Positions 3,295 through 28,662 of a DNA stretch of 32,000 nt are shown here, one piece after another. A model generated the notes under the pieces. That model was not told the DNA's origin. It worked only from the letters and a program-made list of their open reading frames with translations, and ran no database searches. Source of the stretch: Candidatus Heimdallarchaeota archaeon (lineage in GTDB: Archaea; Asgardarchaeota; Heimdallarchaeia; Heimdallarchaeales; Heimdallarchaeaceae); contig DAOVER010000011.1 of assembly GCA_030668875.1 (NCBI GenBank), positions 30,001-62,000 of the forward strand. The letters are read 5' to 3'. Numbering within the stretch: position 1 is the stretch's first letter; each line of letters begins with the position of its first letter. A program made the translations under genes and the position numbers.

Positions 3295-3930
3295 ATGTCT
3301 TTTGAAGATAAAACTCCTGAATCATCAAAAGTAGAAACTTTTGAATCTCTAACAAGAGACCAACAACTCCTTCTATATACCATAGACTACTTAACAAAGT
3401 GGATGGTAAGTGATGAACACTTCGTGAGAAATGAAGGAGACAAAGTTTGGATTAAAGAGCTACCATTGTGGGCTATTATGTACTATCAAATCACTCACGG
3501 ATCATATGAGACTTATGATTACGCCCCTATACCAATTCAATTCTTTGGGAGAAGCAGTTTTACTGTAAATCTTTCATATGAAGGTGTTGATGATGTTGAA
3601 GATTTACGTGAATTAGATGTCCTAGAAAAGATTCGTCTCAGTACATCTCAACACGGTTTTGTTACTGCTTATAGGATTACAGAAATAGGGGACAAATATC
3701 TATTAAAAATTCCTAAGGATGTCATAGATGAAGTTGAAAAACTCTTTTTCTGTGAAAGTTGTCAAAAACGAATGCATTTCTACATGAATATGGGTGATAA
3801 TCCATCAGTTTTAATGGATTGCCCTGATTGTGATGAATCTGATGTTCATTTAGATTTTCTTGAGAGTGAAGATGTAAGTTATGTGTCAAAACCTTACTTT
3901 TTGAAAATAAGTGATATGCTGAAAAGGTGA
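3295..3930 (+). CDS. Winged-helix protein with C-terminal Zn ribbon, function unknown
   Basis: GGAG precedes ATG 3295. The wing-type ending AYRITEIGDKYL follows a YDYAP...SYEGVDDVEDLRE segment; CESC and CPDC pairs lie at the C-terminus. Confidence 0.7.
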   Translation: MSFEDKTPESSKVETFESLTRDQQLLLYTIDYLTKWMVSDEHFVRNEGDKVWIKELPLWAIMYYQITHGSYETYDYAPIPIQFFGRSSFTVNLSYEGVDDVEDLRELDVLEKIRLSTSQHGFVTAYRITEIGDKYLLKIPKDVIDEVEKLFFCESCQKRMHFYMNMGDNPSVLMDCPDCDESDVHLDFLESEDVSYVSKPYFLKISDMLKR

Positions 3931-3934
3931 TTAT

Positions 3935-5713
3935 ATGAGTGATGATAATGATTTAGCAGGAAACATAAAAGATGAATTAACAGAAGTTATCCATATTAAA
4001 GATCCCAAAATCTTTGTTATAGAATGGCTTCCTTTTGACTCTAATCAACTAAGAGAGCTTAACAAAAAAATGGACATTGAAAAAGGAGCACATAAAACTC
4101 TCCTTACAGGTTTAATTGATAAGCAACCAAATGTACCAATTTTTCAATCAAAAGGTGCTCATACAAAAGTATTCGTTGAGGATTATGAACTTGATAGTTT
4201 TGTTAATCTTCAAGCAATTATCGATTTACCTGAAGAAGAAGGTATAGCGCAAGTTGAAGAAATGGCTATTTTTGTCTCAAGAGATGGTTTCATCATTTAT
4301 TCATTAGAGTTGGCTGAAATTGAAAATCTGAATACCTACATGTCAATAGATAAAATAACTCGAGTTGTTGCAGATTTATGTCAAGATAGTTCTGTAGTGA
4401 TTGATAGTCTTTTGACTGAATTCCAAAGGAATTTTATCGAAATTATTTTTGGAGATCCTATCCATCGTCCAAAAACTATCTGTTATGTTGGTGATGATAT
4501 TAAAATCCGACATGAAGACATAAAAGATTACTATGATGGGGAGGAATTTGAGATTGAACTAAGCCAACTATTGGGTGAAGGACATGAACCTTTCCAAGTG
4601 GGTAATAATCTCTTCTTTAAAGGTTCAAGAGGAACATGTGCTATTGTAGATAAGTTTGATAAGGAAACAGAATACCAAATAGTTTTCTGGGGTATTCAGC
4701 ATGCAATGAACAATTTTGTAGATAATTTCATGTCTAGAATTTGGGAATTATATGATCAAACCAAGCAAGTGAAAAAAATCGTTGATGAAGCTGTTGCAGG
4801 CAATACTGATGCTTTAAATACCGTTACAGAAGAAATTACGGTAATTACTAGTACAATTAGTCTAGTTGGACAGATTAAAGAATTTCTTAAAGATTCTAGT
4901 AAAGATTTGTTAGAAATCTATGGAAAAAATGAAAAATGTAATCTTGATGGTTTCTATGAGGTTGAAAATTCCTTAAAATCTTCACAAAGAAGAATTCTCG
5001 AATCTGAAAAAATCATTTCTGGCTTATTAACAGAGCTTGATGGGTTACGAAATTACGTAGCAACTCTTTCAGAATTACAAATGAGAAAGATGTCTAAAGT
5101 AATGACAAAAAACACAAAAAGTATGAATGAAGTACTTCAAGCAAATACTAGAACAAGTGAAGCAATCGATATGATTGAATTGATTTTGGCAGGTAGTATC
5201 ATCTTAGAGATTTTTGCTTTTGCGGTGGGTGAAATTACGACTGAGCAGACATTCTTTGGTTCAATATTAGGGGGAGAAGGTTTTGGGAAGGATCAGTGGA
5301 TCACTCTAGCACTTTTAGTGATTAGTGTTTTCGCTTGGATAACTATAGTTATTCTATTAAGAAGAAGCAAGAAGAAAATGGAGATAGAAGCTTTGCAAGA
5401 TTTCTTTGTAACACTGTCTGTGAATAGAAAAATAGATACGGCTAAAATGGAAGAATATATCTCAGTAAGAACTGTTCAAATAAAAAATGTGGAAAATGAT
5501 AAGGACAATACAATCATCTCATATGTGTGGGATGGTAAAGATGATCCAAATCTGCTAGGAAAAGAAATAGAGAAAGTAAGTCTGAGTTATAACGCGACTA
5601 ACTGTTTATTACTCTCTATAGAAATTGAAACATCTGTGCTAGATATTCCACAGGATGAGCTTCTGGGTTATTTAATGGAAGATCTTGAAGCAAAGGAGAT
5701 ATTTATTAAATAA
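3935..5713 (+). CDS. CorA-like architecture membrane protein lacking the GMN motif
   Basis: AGGTGA SD overlaps the upstream stop. Large soluble N-domain, long stalk helix (~aa 343-410), two hydrophobic helices (~411-432, ~455-475), basic RRSKKK, then a ~110-aa soluble C-domain. Confidence 0.55.
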   Translation: MSDDNDLAGNIKDELTEVIHIKDPKIFVIEWLPFDSNQLRELNKKMDIEKGAHKTLLTGLIDKQPNVPIFQSKGAHTKVFVEDYELDSFVNLQAIIDLPEEEGIAQVEEMAIFVSRDGFIIYSLELAEIENLNTYMSIDKITRVVADLCQDSSVVIDSLLTEFQRNFIEIIFGDPIHRPKTICYVGDDIKIRHEDIKDYYDGEEFEIELSQLLGEGHEPFQVGNNLFFKGSRGTCAIVDKFDKETEYQIVFWGIQHAMNNFVDNFMSRIWELYDQTKQVKKIVDEAVAGNTDALNTVTEEITVITSTISLVGQIKEFLKDSSKDLLEIYGKNEKCNLDGFYEVENSLKSSQRRILESEKIISGLLTELDGLRNYVATLSELQMRKMSKVMTKNTKSMNEVLQANTRTSEAIDMIELILAGSIILEIFAFAVGEITTEQTFFGSILGGEGFGKDQWITLALLVISVFAWITIVILLRRSKKKMEIEALQDFFVTLSVNRKIDTAKMEEYISVRTVQIKNVENDKDNTIISYVWDGKDDPNLLGKEIEKVSLSYNATNCLLLSIEIETSVLDIPQDELLGYLMEDLEAKEIFIK

Positions 5714-11026: not shown

Positions 11027-12820
11027 ATGAGTGATAATATTATTCCTCCTATTGGAAAAGGTCCTTCTCGAAAGGAAAAAACTAAACTTCAAGAAATCAG
11101 AACTAAAGCTGATGCTGAAGAAGAGAATTTTTATGCTCTTGAAGTTGAAGATTTCGAGAAAGTAGAATATAGACCTTATGATACAGAAGAAGAAAAGAAG
11201 GACGATTTACCAAAAATTGATTTCTTTGTAGATAAAATTTACATGCAAAAGATAGTAAATGACCCTTCAAAGGTTCTAATAACAGCATACATAGATTATG
11301 GTTTTCTTAAACCAAACAAGGTCAATCTATTAGTTGATGTTGATAAGAAACATCCATTCAAAAGCAAAGCAAAAGGAAGTTGTATGATTCATCTCTTTAA
11401 TGATGATTTATGCGAAATTGCTGAAATTCCAATGAAGCATTCATCTGAATTCAAATATCATCCTATAGCTTCAGCACCTGAGTTATTCTTAGGATTGATT
11501 GAAAACTTAGAGGAAAAAAAGAGCTACTATTATAGAATTGAATGTTTTGATGAAAATCAGAAAATTATTGGTGCTTCCCGAATAAAGCAATTCAACGCTA
11601 GTGTTCGTAATGTAAAAAGCCCCACTTTCTATGTTTCTGTTTCAGATATCCACGCGGGGAACAAAGCAAAATTCAGGAGAGGTAGAGTACGAGGATGTAA
11701 GCCTAGAACTACTGAAAAACTTGACATACTGATGAGTCACATACACCTAAACGAACTGGATTATACATTCAATAAAGGGTATCAAGCTTTTACAACCAGT
11801 GGAGATAATGTAGAAAATGGTTCTTATCATGAATATTGGGCTGATCTTTTTGCATGTGGGAGTGATAATTTAGCAAGAATACCTTTTTTGCCGACAATTG
11901 GTAACCACGATTATTTTTTTGGCGGAATTGGCAGAGGATCTTGGTTTGGTACCAAAACACCTACCCAAAAGAATTTTCATATGTTTGTTCAAACACCCAA
12001 AAAGCAAGGCGGAGCTTACTATTCTCATGTAGAAGGGAATGTTCTAATGATACATTTAGATTCCATTGGATTGAATTGGGGAAATGAACGAATTGATTGT
12101 GAGAGTAGACAATGGAAATGGTTGTACAGTGTTCTTAAAGAATGGAGAGACAAGAGAGCAAAGGGTAAAGGACCACAATTTTGTATTGTTTATCTTCATT
12201 CTGCAATTCTTTCATTAGGTATGTATGGAATAACAAAAAATAACTCTGATGACTTTGCTCAAAAAACACTAATGCCTCTTTTTGATGCTTTTGGAGTAAA
12301 TGCTGCCGTATTTGGTCATGACCATGTATACCAACGTTCTCAACACAAAAAAACCTCCTACATCTGTATAGGGGTTTCTAGTAAAGGTACTAGAAATTTA
12401 TTTGATAGTGAAATTGCGGATGCAGGATACAAAATAGAAAGTTGGAATGAAGGAGATAAATCTAGAGGATATGCGGTTACTTATGTTCCTCCAAATATGA
12501 ACTTGATGTCAAGTAGTGAAAAACAAGAATTCGAACAATGGTTAGGGAGAATTAAACAAACTATTCTTGACGGAGATTTAGCAAAATATTACCTTTTTGA
12601 GCAAGGTAGAGAATCACCTAAATACAAGGAACTTATGTCTAATAGCATAAAGAAGCTCGAATTCATTCAAAAAGAAATCATTGAGAAGATGAAAAACCAG
12701 ATGTGGTTTAGATTCTATAATGTGAAAGGTGTTCTAAACGATCAAACATTTTTAAGTCCCATTACTTTAGCTAAAGAAGTTACAGAACCACCAAAATGTC
12801 CTAATGAAATTGTTAGATAA
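11027..12820 (+). CDS. Calcineurin-like metallophosphoesterase with purple-acid-phosphatase-like N-terminal domain
   Basis: SDIH, GDNV, GNHDY, VYLH, FGHDHVYQRS; upstream LEEKKSYYYRI (FN3-like PAP N-domain pattern). No signal peptide. Confidence 0.85.
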   Translation: MSDNIIPPIGKGPSRKEKTKLQEIRTKADAEEENFYALEVEDFEKVEYRPYDTEEEKKDDLPKIDFFVDKIYMQKIVNDPSKVLITAYIDYGFLKPNKVNLLVDVDKKHPFKSKAKGSCMIHLFNDDLCEIAEIPMKHSSEFKYHPIASAPELFLGLIENLEEKKSYYYRIECFDENQKIIGASRIKQFNASVRNVKSPTFYVSVSDIHAGNKAKFRRGRVRGCKPRTTEKLDILMSHIHLNELDYTFNKGYQAFTTSGDNVENGSYHEYWADLFACGSDNLARIPFLPTIGNHDYFFGGIGRGSWFGTKTPTQKNFHMFVQTPKKQGGAYYSHVEGNVLMIHLDSIGLNWGNERIDCESRQWKWLYSVLKEWRDKRAKGKGPQFCIVYLHSAILSLGMYGITKNNSDDFAQKTLMPLFDAFGVNAAVFGHDHVYQRSQHKKTSYICIGVSSKGTRNLFDSEIADAGYKIESWNEGDKSRGYAVTYVPPNMNLMSSSEKQEFEQWLGRIKQTILDGDLAKYYLFEQGRESPKYKELMSNSIKKLEFIQKEIIEKMKNQMWFRFYNVKGVLNDQTFLSPITLAKEVTEPPKCPNEIVR

Positions 12821-12894: not shown

Positions 12895-14280
12895 TTATTT
12901 TGCTGGTTTTAAAGATGCACCACATTTGATACAGAAGAGGGAATCAGGAGGGTTGTCACCGTCACAGAAGGGGCATTTGATTTCATTAGAAGAAACAACT
13001 TTGACCCCCTGTTTCTCCTCTGTTTTGTCTACTTCAGCTACTAACTGTTGATGAATAGTTTCAGCAGCTGGGGAAAGTTTTTCTTTCTTGGAGGGGTCAA
13101 CTTTGGTGATATCGAAGAGAATACCGTTTTCAACATCAAAACCAATTTGAGCAATTCCAAGTTTAAGAATTTTCCATGTGTTCATCTTTAGTAAGTCTGA
13201 AGAAGTGTTAAGTATTCTAGCAGCATCACGAATGTAGATTGCTTGATAGCTTTCTACTACTCGAATCAGTTTTTCTGTTGTATTTTTGTTAGCAAAGAAT
13301 ACTATTGATGCTATACCTAGTAAGATAACAGGCATGACTACTATAAGGAACCAGGAATTGGTTACTATACCTAGAACGAAGAAGAAGATAGCTATCAGCC
13401 CTAATACTCGTTCTGGAATGCTTGTGTAATCCCAATATCTATTGATCTTATTGAGAATGTCGCTTTTATTATCATATCTCTTAGTTTGACCTGCAACAAT
13501 ATAGTTGCCAATTGCATTTGCAGCTGGAACTTTAGCCCTTGGTGCAGAGATTCGAGTAGGTGTAACAGTTTTTGTTACGGCAGCAGTTGTGGCTTTGGTG
13601 GTAGTCTTTGTACCTGAGGAAGCTGGTTGAACAGCTGTAATATATTGATAATCATATCTATCTTTCTTCCTCTCATAGCTATTGAGTTTCCTTGAACTAG
13701 AACCGTTTGAAGGATATCTACCTGCACCAGTGATGGGCCAAATTATTAGATATTTGATGAAATAACCTATTGTATTGAGAACCAGTATCACTATAAAGAA
13801 TGCGAATATGACCGCTAAAATACTCCCAGCAATAAATAATCCTATTTTTGCAGAAGCATAGTGAGATGTGTAATATAATTCTGAAGCACCATTATTAACG
13901 ATGTAAATATAATGATCACCATCACTGTCTAGCATTCTATACATATCATCACTAGTAGAACTAAATTGGATATTAGTTGGAGGAATGCTATCATTTGTAT
14001 TATGCCAAATACTGTTCTCAACATCAGTCATTAAGTATACTTTGAAATTCGAAGTGTCGCCTGATATCCAATAAACAAGAAATATCCTTGTGTCGTAATC
14101 TGCATCTAACATCAGAATTGCATCAGAACCTGCAGAAACAGTAATATCTTGGTCGGAATATGTTCCACCAGTTGTAATCGCTATACTAGTTAAAACCCCT
14201 AATGGAATTCCTGTTAATATTACAAAGATTATTGAGGTTATTGCCAGTCCATTAAGATATCTTACGCCTTTACTTGCCAT
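12895..14280 (-). CDS. Four-TM membrane protein with extracellular beta domain, PCI/winged-helix-like domain and C-terminal Zn ribbon
   Basis: Four hydrophobic segments; T/A/P-rich low-complexity linker; IYIRDAARILNTSSDLLKMNTWKILKLGIAQIGFDVENG; KCPFCDGDNPPDSLFCIKCGASL. AGGTGA SD precedes ATG 14280. Confidence 0.7.
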   Translation of the reverse strand: MASKGVRYLNGLAITSIIFVILTGIPLGVLTSIAITTGGTYSDQDITVSAGSDAILMLDADYDTRIFLVYWISGDTSNFKVYLMTDVENSIWHNTNDSIPPTNIQFSSTSDDMYRMLDSDGDHYIYIVNNGASELYYTSHYASAKIGLFIAGSILAVIFAFFIVILVLNTIGYFIKYLIIWPITGAGRYPSNGSSSRKLNSYERKKDRYDYQYITAVQPASSGTKTTTKATTAAVTKTVTPTRISAPRAKVPAANAIGNYIVAGQTKRYDNKSDILNKINRYWDYTSIPERVLGLIAIFFFVLGIVTNSWFLIVVMPVILLGIASIVFFANKNTTEKLIRVVESYQAIYIRDAARILNTSSDLLKMNTWKILKLGIAQIGFDVENGILFDITKVDPSKKEKLSPAAETIHQQLVAEVDKTEEKQGVKVVSSNEIKCPFCDGDNPPDSLFCIKCGASLKPAK

Positions 14281-14299
14281 ATTTTTCACCTATTTGTTA

Positions 14300-14315
14300 T
14301 ACCACCACAGTGGTA
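14300..14315. promoter_or_regulatory. Palindromic operator candidate 1 (TACCAC-N4-GTGGTA)
   Basis: Perfect 6-bp arms: taccac-caca-gtggta. Confidence 0.65.
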
Positions 14316-14326
14316 ACTTGTCTATT

Positions 14327-14342
14327 TACTACTGGAGTGGTA
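14327..14342. promoter_or_regulatory. Palindromic operator candidate 2 (TACTAC-N4-GTGGTA)
   Basis: tactac-tgga-gtggta, 5/6 arm match, same spacing as site 1, 27 bp downstream of it. Confidence 0.6.
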
Positions 14343-14345
14343 ACC

Positions 14346-14353
14346 TTTATAAA
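14346..14353 (+). promoter_or_regulatory. TATA box of the TrmB-family gene (probably leaderless transcript)
   Basis: tttataaa ends 27 bp before ATG 14380. Confidence 0.6.
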
Positions 14354-14379
14354 TGTTGCCTTTCACTATAATATTGACG

Positions 14380-15366
14380 ATGAGTAAGACTCCACATATC
14401 CTCGATAAGCTAAAGTTGATAGGATTTACAGAATATACATCAAGAGCATATTTAGCATTAGTAAAACTTGGTGAAGCAACTGCCCCAGATATTGCTAGGG
14501 AATCTAATATACCTCAATCAAAAATCTATGGAGTTCTAGATGACTTGTATGATAAAGGATTTGTAGGAAAGGCAGGAGAGAAAGATAAGAAGAAAGATCA
14601 AAGTAAGAAAAAAACTACCTCACCTACAATTTACTTTGCACATCAACCACAGGAAAAGCTGTCATCATGGTTAGATCAATTCAAAGATTTAGCTAAATCA
14701 CTGGAAAAAATATATGATTCAGCTGGTCCTAGCTCTGAGTATGGGTATTCTTCTATTGGTAATTATACTATTAAGGGTGAATCAGATAAATTTGAAGCTG
14801 GTGACTTCATCTATATTTTTGAGCAACCAGGTGACGAAGATACTAATCTGTATGCTAGATTCTTCAAAGGACGAATAAATAATCATATTATCGTAGGTGG
14901 AGAAGATAATATTGTGTTAGGTATAACCAATAGAAACACTATCCTTCTAATTGAAAAAGAATCAAGAGTACAATATTTAGCAATTGAAGAACCAATATTC
15001 TCAAGTATAATTGATGTTCTTTTCGCAATTACACCAATTAATAGATCTATTACACAGGATATGTCTGAATTATCCAAAGAAGAGAAGATTTTATACATAG
15101 ACAATGTTCCTTCTGCTTCTGGAGTGGCATATGGTAATGATGGTATTTTATGGATAACTGAGGAAAGATTCTTTGTTCAAATGCCAGGAAAGCAGATTTA
15201 TGCTAGACCTATATTTACTATAGATTCCTACTATGTAAATGAAAATAATATATTAACTATAATAATTAAAAGCAAAGATGGAATTGCAGAAGAAAATGAA
15301 TTTAACACATCGTCAGATCCTTCCATTATTGTTAACGTAATTGACTTTATTAAGCGTTGTAAATAA
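14380..15366 (+). CDS. TrmB-family transcriptional regulator with atypical C-terminal (PH/GRAM-like) domain
   Basis: LKLIGFTEYTSRAYLALVKLGEATAPDIARESNIPQSKIYGVLDDLYDKGFV is a TrmB HTH. The C-terminal EEKILY...GILWITEERFF...PIFTI pattern resembles PH-like folds. ATG 14380 is preferred because of TATA spacing. Confidence 0.85.
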   Translation: MSKTPHILDKLKLIGFTEYTSRAYLALVKLGEATAPDIARESNIPQSKIYGVLDDLYDKGFVGKAGEKDKKKDQSKKKTTSPTIYFAHQPQEKLSSWLDQFKDLAKSLEKIYDSAGPSSEYGYSSIGNYTIKGESDKFEAGDFIYIFEQPGDEDTNLYARFFKGRINNHIIVGGEDNIVLGITNRNTILLIEKESRVQYLAIEEPIFSSIIDVLFAITPINRSITQDMSELSKEEKILYIDNVPSASGVAYGNDGILWITEERFFVQMPGKQIYARPIFTIDSYYVNENNILTIIIKSKDGIAEENEFNTSSDPSIIVNVIDFIKRCK

Positions 15367-28640: not shown

Positions 28641-28662
28641 TATTCAAGTTACAACTTGTATA
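28641..28662. promoter_or_regulatory. Palindromic operator candidate of the ECF operon
   Basis: tattcaagtt-ac-aacttgtata (9/10 arm pairs), between a minus-strand TATA (28664-28673, ttttatatta) and the SD/ATG at 28621. Confidence 0.55.

Follow-up and report, generated by a model that had tools for sequence, protein, structure and literature searches.

Two near-identical palindromes stand side by side in the short gap between a TrmB-like regulator gene and a divergent membrane-protein gene of a heimdallarchaeon, raising the question of which protein reads them and what they control. Most Asgard archaea are known from metagenomes only, and their regulation therefore has to be read from sequence. 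Our literature search found no paper on a regulator-operator pair in these organisms. The original prediction, made from the letters of the DNA, saw here a new TrmB-family operator through which the adjacent regulator controls itself and the membrane protein. It compared the palindromes with TATCAC-N5-GTGATA (TGM) and TACT-N3-AGTA, both of which stand in this form in the TrmB review (PMC4158304). The window, that is, the whole stretch of 32,000 nucleotides analyzed here, is C23:30001-62000 of a 3.23-Mb host genome (99 contigs, 33.8% GC). The sequencing runs listed as containing this stretch are all DNA runs, from marine sediment and cold seeps; no RNA run is among them.

Results

Layout of the divergent intergenic region

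The intergenic region holds two copies of one palindrome. It spans 14281-14379 (99 bp) between the regulator gene on the plus strand (14380..15366, 328 aa; recognized by PF01978, a structural model, and fold matches) and the membrane-protein gene on the minus strand (12895..14280, 461 aa; from translation, with weak Pfam zinc-ribbon matches). Copy 1 occupies 14299..14316 as an 18-mer (ATACCAC-CACA-GTGGTAA) with a 16-mer core at 14300-14315 (TACCAC-CACA-GTGGTA). Copy 2 occupies 14326..14343 (TTACTAC-TGGA-GTGGTAA) with its core at 14327-14342 (TACTAC-TGGA-GTGGTA). Neither copy is assigned a strand. They are 27 bp apart from start to start, and within each palindrome the half-site centers are 10 bp apart. 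The tandem pair in a gap of about 100 bp is thus present as predicted. So is its isolation: no further copy occurs in the window, where the nearest match (at 28650) has two mismatches.

Both copies sit between a TATA box and a Shine-Dalgarno sequence. The core of copy 2 is followed by ACC and then by the TATA box TTTATAAA (14346..14353, no strand assigned), a perfect palindrome that starts 34 nt 5' of the regulator ATG at 14380 and is kept in all orthologues. In the window, copy 2 adjoins this box and covers the expected BRE. On the other side, 9 bp separate copy 1 from the Shine-Dalgarno sequence GGTGA of the membrane-protein gene (14286..14290, minus strand), which starts 10 nt before the ATG at 14280. 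The distances first read by eye, 3 bp from the end of copy 2 to the regulator's TATA box and 20 bp from copy 1 to the divergent ATG (14280, minus strand), are borne out by the sequence.

The start of the regulator gene was revised. The ORF finder placed it at the ATG at 14353, inside the TATA box. We moved it to 14380 because all orthologues begin with MSK in the alignment. Automatic gene calls likewise extend the regulator 5' to ATGs inside or before the TATA box (14353-14379 in the window, 1826-1900 in locus L047), giving lengths of 337 aa in the window and 357 aa for protein P0005. With such N-terminal extensions, database entries of this family carry false N-termini.

Occurrence of the motif in the host genome

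The strict motif is confined to this gap. TACYAC-N4-GTRGTA occurs exactly twice in the 3.23-Mb genome, both times here. By our own estimate, base composition alone would give about 0.9 sites per genome, and a second site within 27 bp would be a roughly 5e-5 event. An 18-bp weight matrix built from the orthologous sites and scanned over the host genome ranks the two copies first and second genome-wide (copy 2, 25.9 bits; copy 1, 22.8 bits). The next matches reach at most 19.1 bits, and all four that were inspected fall within ORFs of more than 400 codons. Because these runners-up lie inside long ORFs, no regulon extends past the local pair in the host genome. A genome-wide scan had been proposed as a means of defining a regulon; once run, it returned the local gene pair only.

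Related patterns are also scarce. Spacer variants from N2 to N6 gave 0-3 sites each in the host genome. Contig C14 carries, at position 5671, a perfect TACTAC-CTTTA-GTAGTA with a TGM-like 5-bp spacer, 12 bp from a copy of TTTATAAA. This palindrome lies near the contig end, about 2 kb from a TrmB-like paralogue. Upstream of the other TrmB-like paralogues in the host genome (contigs C12 and C14), no similar palindrome was found.

Conservation upstream of orthologous regulators

The palindrome accompanies the regulator across the genus. Regulator orthologues were found in 19 of the 23 other genus genomes, with identities from 95% down to about 40%. The 24 genus genomes together hold 23 strict sites, 19 of them just upstream of an orthologous regulator; these genomes are kin and the counts overstate independence, so independent support comes mainly from three to four deep clades and locus L056. 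Strict sites are absent from the four genomes (76-88% complete) that yielded no orthologue. Away from the locus, three other genus genomes contain four strict sites, all of the AT-richer TACTAC...GTAGTA form; about one site per genome is expected by chance. Compared with 46 sites for a reversed control pattern, these four might suggest depletion outside the locus. We rejected this comparison, as the control pattern includes ATG and CAT, and coding sequence may have raised its count.

Conservation upstream of orthologues, on which the original prediction had staked itself, is clear. The footprint pattern was fixed beforehand from the window and applied to 15 upstream regions whose orthologues are at most 51% identical. 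We found 26 sites with no more than one mismatch, spread over 13 of the 15 loci; shuffled sequences gave 0.02. Every orthologue upstream region with enough DNA contains the palindrome, mostly twice, and both operator copies are kept at all orthologous loci of the window's clade. Even where the proteins are only 40% identical the sites persist, in a spacer that has otherwise diverged.

Constancy of the half-sites defines the motif more sharply. Among 29 unique sites there are 17 different spacer tetranucleotides, and the half-sites stay constant. In the columns left free by the search, C6, G11, A17, and R10 are each found in 29/29 sites and Y7 in 28/29. The refined motif is TTACYACY-N2-RGTRGTAA, 18 bp long. 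At least three deep clades carry the signal (clade A, which includes the window; clade B; and L044/L008), with variants in L016 and L063. Where a lineage departs from the motif, the change strikes both sites of one genome: GTGGGG in L044, and GTAGTT or GTAGTC in L010 and L012. L016 has C at position 1 in both sites, together with an altered recognition helix. The L016, L044, and P0017/P0104 lineages give a hint that residues of the recognition helix or wing covary with site positions 1-2 and 15-16.

Spacing and arrangement of the sites among lineages

Spacing between the two sites varies in helical steps. The five classes (26/27, 38, 48/49, 69, and 88 bp) all fall in the same helical phase (R 0.95; p about 0.007 when periods from 10 to 11 are scanned). 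Since the spacing changes in steps of about 10 bp, helical phase is kept. This fits either one protein assembly on both sites or a register with TATA complexes.

The order of elements differs among clades. In the window's clade the sites lie at -80 and -53 from the regulator ATG and the TATA box at -34. Clade B and L044 have a site, TATATAAA or TTTATAAA, a second site, and a second TATA box, with the sites 48-49 bp apart; clade B alone adds a degenerate third copy over the partner's Shine-Dalgarno sequence. L063 has two palindrome-CC-TATA units 88 bp apart. The junction GTRGTRA-CC-TATA is common to the window (as ACC), L063, and L056. A MAFFT alignment makes it possible that copy 1 corresponds to the degenerate third site of clade B. 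We prefer to regard the two palindrome-TATA units as topologically equivalent. The position over the BRE, originally noted for copy 2, holds in the window's clade, L063, and L056. Clade B, which is larger, is the exception: there the regulator's TATA box begins 14 bp downstream of the proximal site.

Clade B (L013, L014, L015, L017, L030, and L009) also has a GC-richer palindrome between the degenerate third site and the distal palindrome. Its symmetry is kept while its sequence changes (GTCCC-GA-GGGAC versus GCCCT-TAG-AGGGC), and a conserved CTCTCGA follows. The window's clade lacks it; it could represent a hairpin in a leader RNA or a further protein-binding site.

Domain structure of the regulator

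The N-terminal part of the regulator resembles TrmB proteins. Pfam assigns residues 11-90 to the TrmB winged helix (PF01978; E 4.9e-18; 65.2 bits against a cut-off of 25.6) and finds no domain besides it. In the structural model (mean pLDDT 74.7), the winged helix (11-90) is followed by a coiled-coil helix (90-114), a beta-rich middle domain that may be a second PH-like unit, and a PH/GRAM-like C-terminal domain (about 220-328). Residues 2-117 match the TrmBL2 fold, including the helix after the wing (Z 12.3, 24% identity). This helix aligns with TrmBL2 up to about residue 104, and is predicted to form a dimer coiled coil as in TrmB and TrmBL2. Searched against the PDB, a profile of 17 orthologues matched TrmBL2 (E 3.9e-10) and TrmB (E 6.3e-8), with coverage of residues 6-102 only. 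The NCBIfam equivalog models for TrmBL1, TrmB, and TrmBL2 match the winged helix only and far below their cut-offs, the best partial match being TrmBL1. The recognition helix IPQ(S/A)KIYGVL is nearly invariant among orthologues (P45, K48, I49, and Y50 are invariant), matching the conserved half-site.

The C-terminal part is of a different kind. PF11495 (Regulator_TrmB, sugar-binding) gave no match to residues 95-328 even at E up to 5. Residues from about 220 to 328 (window 15037-15366) fold like PH/PTB/GRAM/GLUE domains (Z 11-12). ESM Atlas matches to the C-terminal part include a cluster of eukaryotic GRAM domains and a stand-alone family of 122 aa (TM 0.70), whose members come mainly from Promethearchaeota. 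A feature-based protein atlas search with the same part returned no usable match. Remote fold kinship to the beta-barrel subdomain of TrmB is possible. The original assignment of the adjacent protein to the TrmB family therefore stands for the winged helix and the coiled coil and not for the C-terminus, which is PH/GRAM-like and where the sugar-binding domain went undetected. On sequence and model, the regulator is predicted to be TrmB-like in DNA binding and dimerization, with no detectable sugar-sensing domain. Foldseek matches to tandem-PH proteins such as Rtt106 and Pob3 are the ground for the possible second PH-like unit in the middle domain.

Remote relatives of the regulator

The regulator family is narrow. 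A profile search of 1.84 billion representatives gave few remote near-full-length relatives and just five proteins at E <1e-30, from which this narrowness follows.

Some remote relatives keep the palindrome. P0014, encoded at locus L056, has a winged helix 48% identical to that of the regulator, and its remainder is detectable by profile alone. Its 116-bp divergent gap contains a single TTACTAC-TTAA-GTAGTGA, 2 bp before TTTATATA. At 17.4 bits, this site stands above both the runner-up within 3.3 kb (1.2) and the 99th percentile of shuffled maxima (12.3). The divergent gene encodes a TM/zinc-ribbon protein of 259 aa, shorter than the window's partner; alignment between the two covers the zinc-ribbon tail and, weakly, the outer domain, but not residues 347-390. 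A second relative, P0037 (L058), has TTACCAC-TTAT-GGAGTAA at -65 from its start and no divergent partner gene. At 11 bits this site is the top match of its locus, weak and not significant alone. In the scanned upstream regions of the P0017/P0104 subgroup, the motif is absent. Because some remote relatives keep the palindrome, the motif goes with the regulator subfamily rather than with mere local synteny.

Promoters of the two genes

Promoter signals in this genome have preferred positions. TATA-like hexamers peak 36-27 nt before ATGs, and Shine-Dalgarno-like motifs (GGTG/GGAG) 15-9 nt before them. Start-codon statistics over the whole genome separate two gene classes, one with a TATA box about 30 nt upstream (leaderless) and one with a Shine-Dalgarno sequence about 12 nt upstream. 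The regulator fits the leaderless class, as its TATA box starts 34 nt before the ATG and it has no Shine-Dalgarno sequence. The membrane-protein gene fits the leadered class, as its GGTGA starts 10 nt before the ATG.

The membrane-protein promoter should lie at or beyond the palindromes, since only 9 bp separate copy 1 from the Shine-Dalgarno sequence. It would be either the weak TATA-like TAAATAGA on the minus strand (14321..14329, read from 14329 to 14321), recognized by sequence only and poorly conserved in the clade, or the palindromic TTTATAAA firing leftward. At L056, both start codons are about 58 bp from one TATA box, which suggests that a shared TTTATAAA fires leftward for the membrane-protein gene. 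In TrmBL1 and Tgr systems, sites downstream of the TATA box repress, and at the malE promoter TrmB over the BRE/TATA blocks TBP and TFB (PMC4158304). Under either promoter, the sites would lie between TATA box and coding region, and thus in the repressing geometry known for TrmBL1/Tgr. Copy 2 over the BRE resembles TrmB at malE.

The membrane protein and neighboring genes

The membrane-protein gene is the divergent neighbor of the regulator at every orthologous locus with enough flank. Its 461-aa product has, in order, a TM helix, a beta-rich outer domain, a second TM helix, a low-complexity linker, two further TM helices, a cytosolic domain, and a zinc ribbon. From about residue 333 onward, the cytosolic part shows much stronger conservation than the outer domain. 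The terminal zinc ribbon KCPFC..NPPDS.FCI.CGASLKPAK (window 12895-13000) is almost invariant in orthologues otherwise about 40% identical. The structural model is poor (mean pLDDT 51.5, about 40 in the cytosolic domain), and it is in this low-confidence model that residues 347-390 show a beta-alpha-alpha-beta-beta pattern, the secondary-structure ground for calling this region winged-helix-like. A complex prediction for regulator residues 118-328 and partner residues 333-461 scored 0.23 (mark, 0.32), which weighs neither for nor against their binding.

Two further genes occur nearby. A 597-aa calcineurin-like phosphoesterase (Metallophos; window 11027-12820) is a conserved convergent neighbor of the membrane-protein gene in all clades, with 56-60% identity across clades, above that of the membrane protein. 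At L044 (clade at 49% identity), an Arf/Rag-family small GTPase is encoded just downstream of the regulator (3456-4052). Arf/Rag-family small GTPases are Asgard signature proteins.

Discussion

A proposed local switch

The palindromes are very probably the regulator's own binding sites, to judge by their uniqueness in the genome and their conservation beside distant relatives of the regulator. Each 18-bp palindrome would be bound by one dimer of the adjacent regulator, which, with half-sites 10 bp apart, could reach two successive major grooves on one DNA face. Dimers on the sites would cover the only stretch open to the membrane-protein promoter and transcription start, and the regulator would thereby repress the membrane-protein gene. 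Because copy 2 overlaps the BRE of the regulator's leaderless promoter in the window, the regulator probably represses itself as well. A signal read by the C-terminal domains, possibly coming from the membrane protein, would release it. The regulon would be the local divergent pair alone, a TetR/TetA-style autoregulated logic made of archaeal parts. We give a probability of about 0.75 to this reading, in which the palindromes are operators of the adjacent regulator, which represses the membrane-protein gene and probably its own gene until a signal releases it. Its two regulatory parts differ in strength. If binding holds, repression of the membrane-protein gene is likely by position and by analogy with known regulators; negative autoregulation, argued in the same way, has somewhat better than even odds.

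The same regulator might instead activate from these sites, or act both ways, for example by activating its own gene and repressing the membrane-protein gene. Such behavior is known: when their sites lie upstream of the BRE/TATA, TrmBL1/Tgr, Halobacterium TrmB, and OxsR are activators, and the proximal site of clade B, 14 bp upstream of its TATA box, is in an activating position for TrmBL1. However, only 2-3 bp lie between site and TATA box in the window, L063, and L056, so that the site overlaps the BRE in the repressing geometry of TrmB at malE, and no membrane-protein promoter fits downstream of the sites. Activation or a dual role is accordingly possible but rather unlikely.

The locus could also be a self-contained transmembrane signaling module of Heimdallarchaeia, in which a receptor-like membrane protein would control the regulator through its PH/GRAM-like domains. 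The membrane protein would tether the regulator at the membrane or hand a ligand to it, and the twin phased operators would be the read-out, with feedback on both genes. We consider this doubtful.

Another protein could read the palindromes, either an unlinked factor or the partner itself, whose cytosolic winged-helix-like/zinc-ribbon part would then be a membrane-tethered DNA-binding domain. The partner gene is co-conserved with the sites at every genus locus and at L056, and its cytosolic part and zinc ribbon, with the beta-alpha-alpha-beta-beta pattern at 347-390, are its best-conserved regions. Several observations nevertheless point back to the regulator as the reader. One base separates the half-site from that of TGM, the motif bound by TrmBL1, whose winged helix is the closest known. 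L058 keeps a similar, if weak, palindrome 5' of the regulator gene with no divergent partner, and the short partner at L056 has no alignment to the winged-helix-like residues 347-390. At a pLDDT of 51, the partner model is too poor for calling a DNA-binding fold. A different reader is thus improbable.

A role in RNA rather than as DNA sites is very improbable, be it as hairpins, for example in the 5' leader of the membrane-protein mRNA, or as something like a terminator. Each palindrome could fold into a stem of 6 bp closed by a loop of 4 nt, leftward firing of the shared TATA box could bring copy 1 into a transcript, and a simple scan flagged copy 1 as terminator-like, although that scan is for bacterial promoters and terminators and is inapplicable to an archaeon. 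However, the predicted fold (-6.8 kcal/mol, z -0.16) is no better than that of shuffles, and there is no Rfam match. What is conserved is the half-site sequence, not pairing alone: Y4 and R13 show no covariation (counts 13, 7, 5, and 4, near independence), and 17-24% of sites are mismatched on either strand. Moreover, no gene ends at the palindromes, and copy 2 lies upstream of the regulator's TATA box. That the palindromes are functionless chance features of an AT-rich spacer has a negligible probability: about one such site per genome is expected and the reversed control pattern gives its 46 sites in 24 genomes, but two sites stand 27 bp apart, 19 of the 23 strict genus sites are at this locus, and they are kept at 40% protein identity while the remaining spacer diverges.

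Relation to known systems

The motif is related to published TrmB-family motifs and distinct from them, as originally proposed. TACCAC differs from the TATCAC of TGM at one position, and the spacer is 4 rather than 5 bp. The published motifs are TACT-N3-AGTA, TATCAC-N5-GTGATA, TACT-N7-8-GAGTA, ATAATACT repeats, and CGGnCGnGCG (PMC4158304, PMC9426492); compared as sequences, none of these is the window motif. A search of indexed DNA gave no similar stretch elsewhere. All 29 unique sites depart from the TGM consensus by C3 and the 4-bp spacer, both preset by the collecting pattern.

The closest parallel is TGM, the Thermococcales glycolytic motif, used by TrmBL1 of Pyrococcus furiosus and Tgr of Thermococcus kodakarensis and likewise a palindromic operator of a TrmB-type winged-helix dimer. 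The half-sites agree at 5/6 positions, and the TrmBL1 ChIP-seq logo has the same Y...R at the inner edges of its spacer. Both motifs are placed at or beside the BRE/TATA or transcription start, and the window's winged helix is closest to the TrmBL1 model. TrmBL1, in contrast, binds at about 28 or more places by ChIP-seq, and its motif occurs 70 times genome-wide, whereas the window motif is found at the regulator's own locus only. The window sites differ further in being paired and phased, in a regulator with no detectable sugar-binding domain, and in an Asgard rather than Thermococcales host.

TrmB of Thermococcus litoralis and P. furiosus, at malE, shares the outer TAC...GTA and an operator that overlaps the BRE/TATA, and its gene is beside a target that encodes a membrane-associated system, as in the window. 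The window half-sites are longer, their spacing differs, the effector domain is another one, and there are two operators. OxsR of Haloferax volcanii is a single-domain PF01978 protein that binds sequence-specifically and activates or represses according to site position relative to the BRE/TATA (PMC9426492). It resembles the window's regulator in being a PF01978 protein with no sugar-binding domain, but has a CG-rich semipalindrome, a broad regulon, thiol-oxidation sensing, and no C-terminal domains.

In predicted function, the nearest likeness is to Tn10. There, tetR and tetA diverge from a region with two palindromic operators, TetR acts on both genes, and its inducer is known. Common to both loci are a regulator with a divergent membrane-protein gene, a short shared control region, tandem operators, and a local regulon. 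The TetR HTH and the TrmB winged helix are unrelated, however, and the promoters are bacterial in the one case and archaeal TATA/BRE promoters in the other. The operator principle is well known; what is new is the motif, its phased twin layout, the PH/GRAM-like sensor, and the host, an Asgard archaeon.

Implications for Asgard gene regulation

The locus yields a sharply defined 18-bp motif and its predicted cognate regulator of 328 aa. It makes a clear prediction, namely that the regulator would bind specifically at two sites and repress the divergent membrane-protein gene. In the ~10-bp steps between operator spacings, nature offers a compact experiment on helical phasing at archaeal promoters. 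TrmB-type DNA reading, here of TACYAC with a spacer of 4, would be extended to a sensor part that is PH/GRAM-like and not sugar-binding. A bacterial-style one-component switch would thus be joined to a fold typical of eukaryotic membrane signaling, in the archaea closest to eukaryotes. Should the locus prove to be a transmembrane signaling module, it would be a prokaryotic counterpart of membrane-controlled transcription factors, built with a fold best known from eukaryotic membrane signaling.
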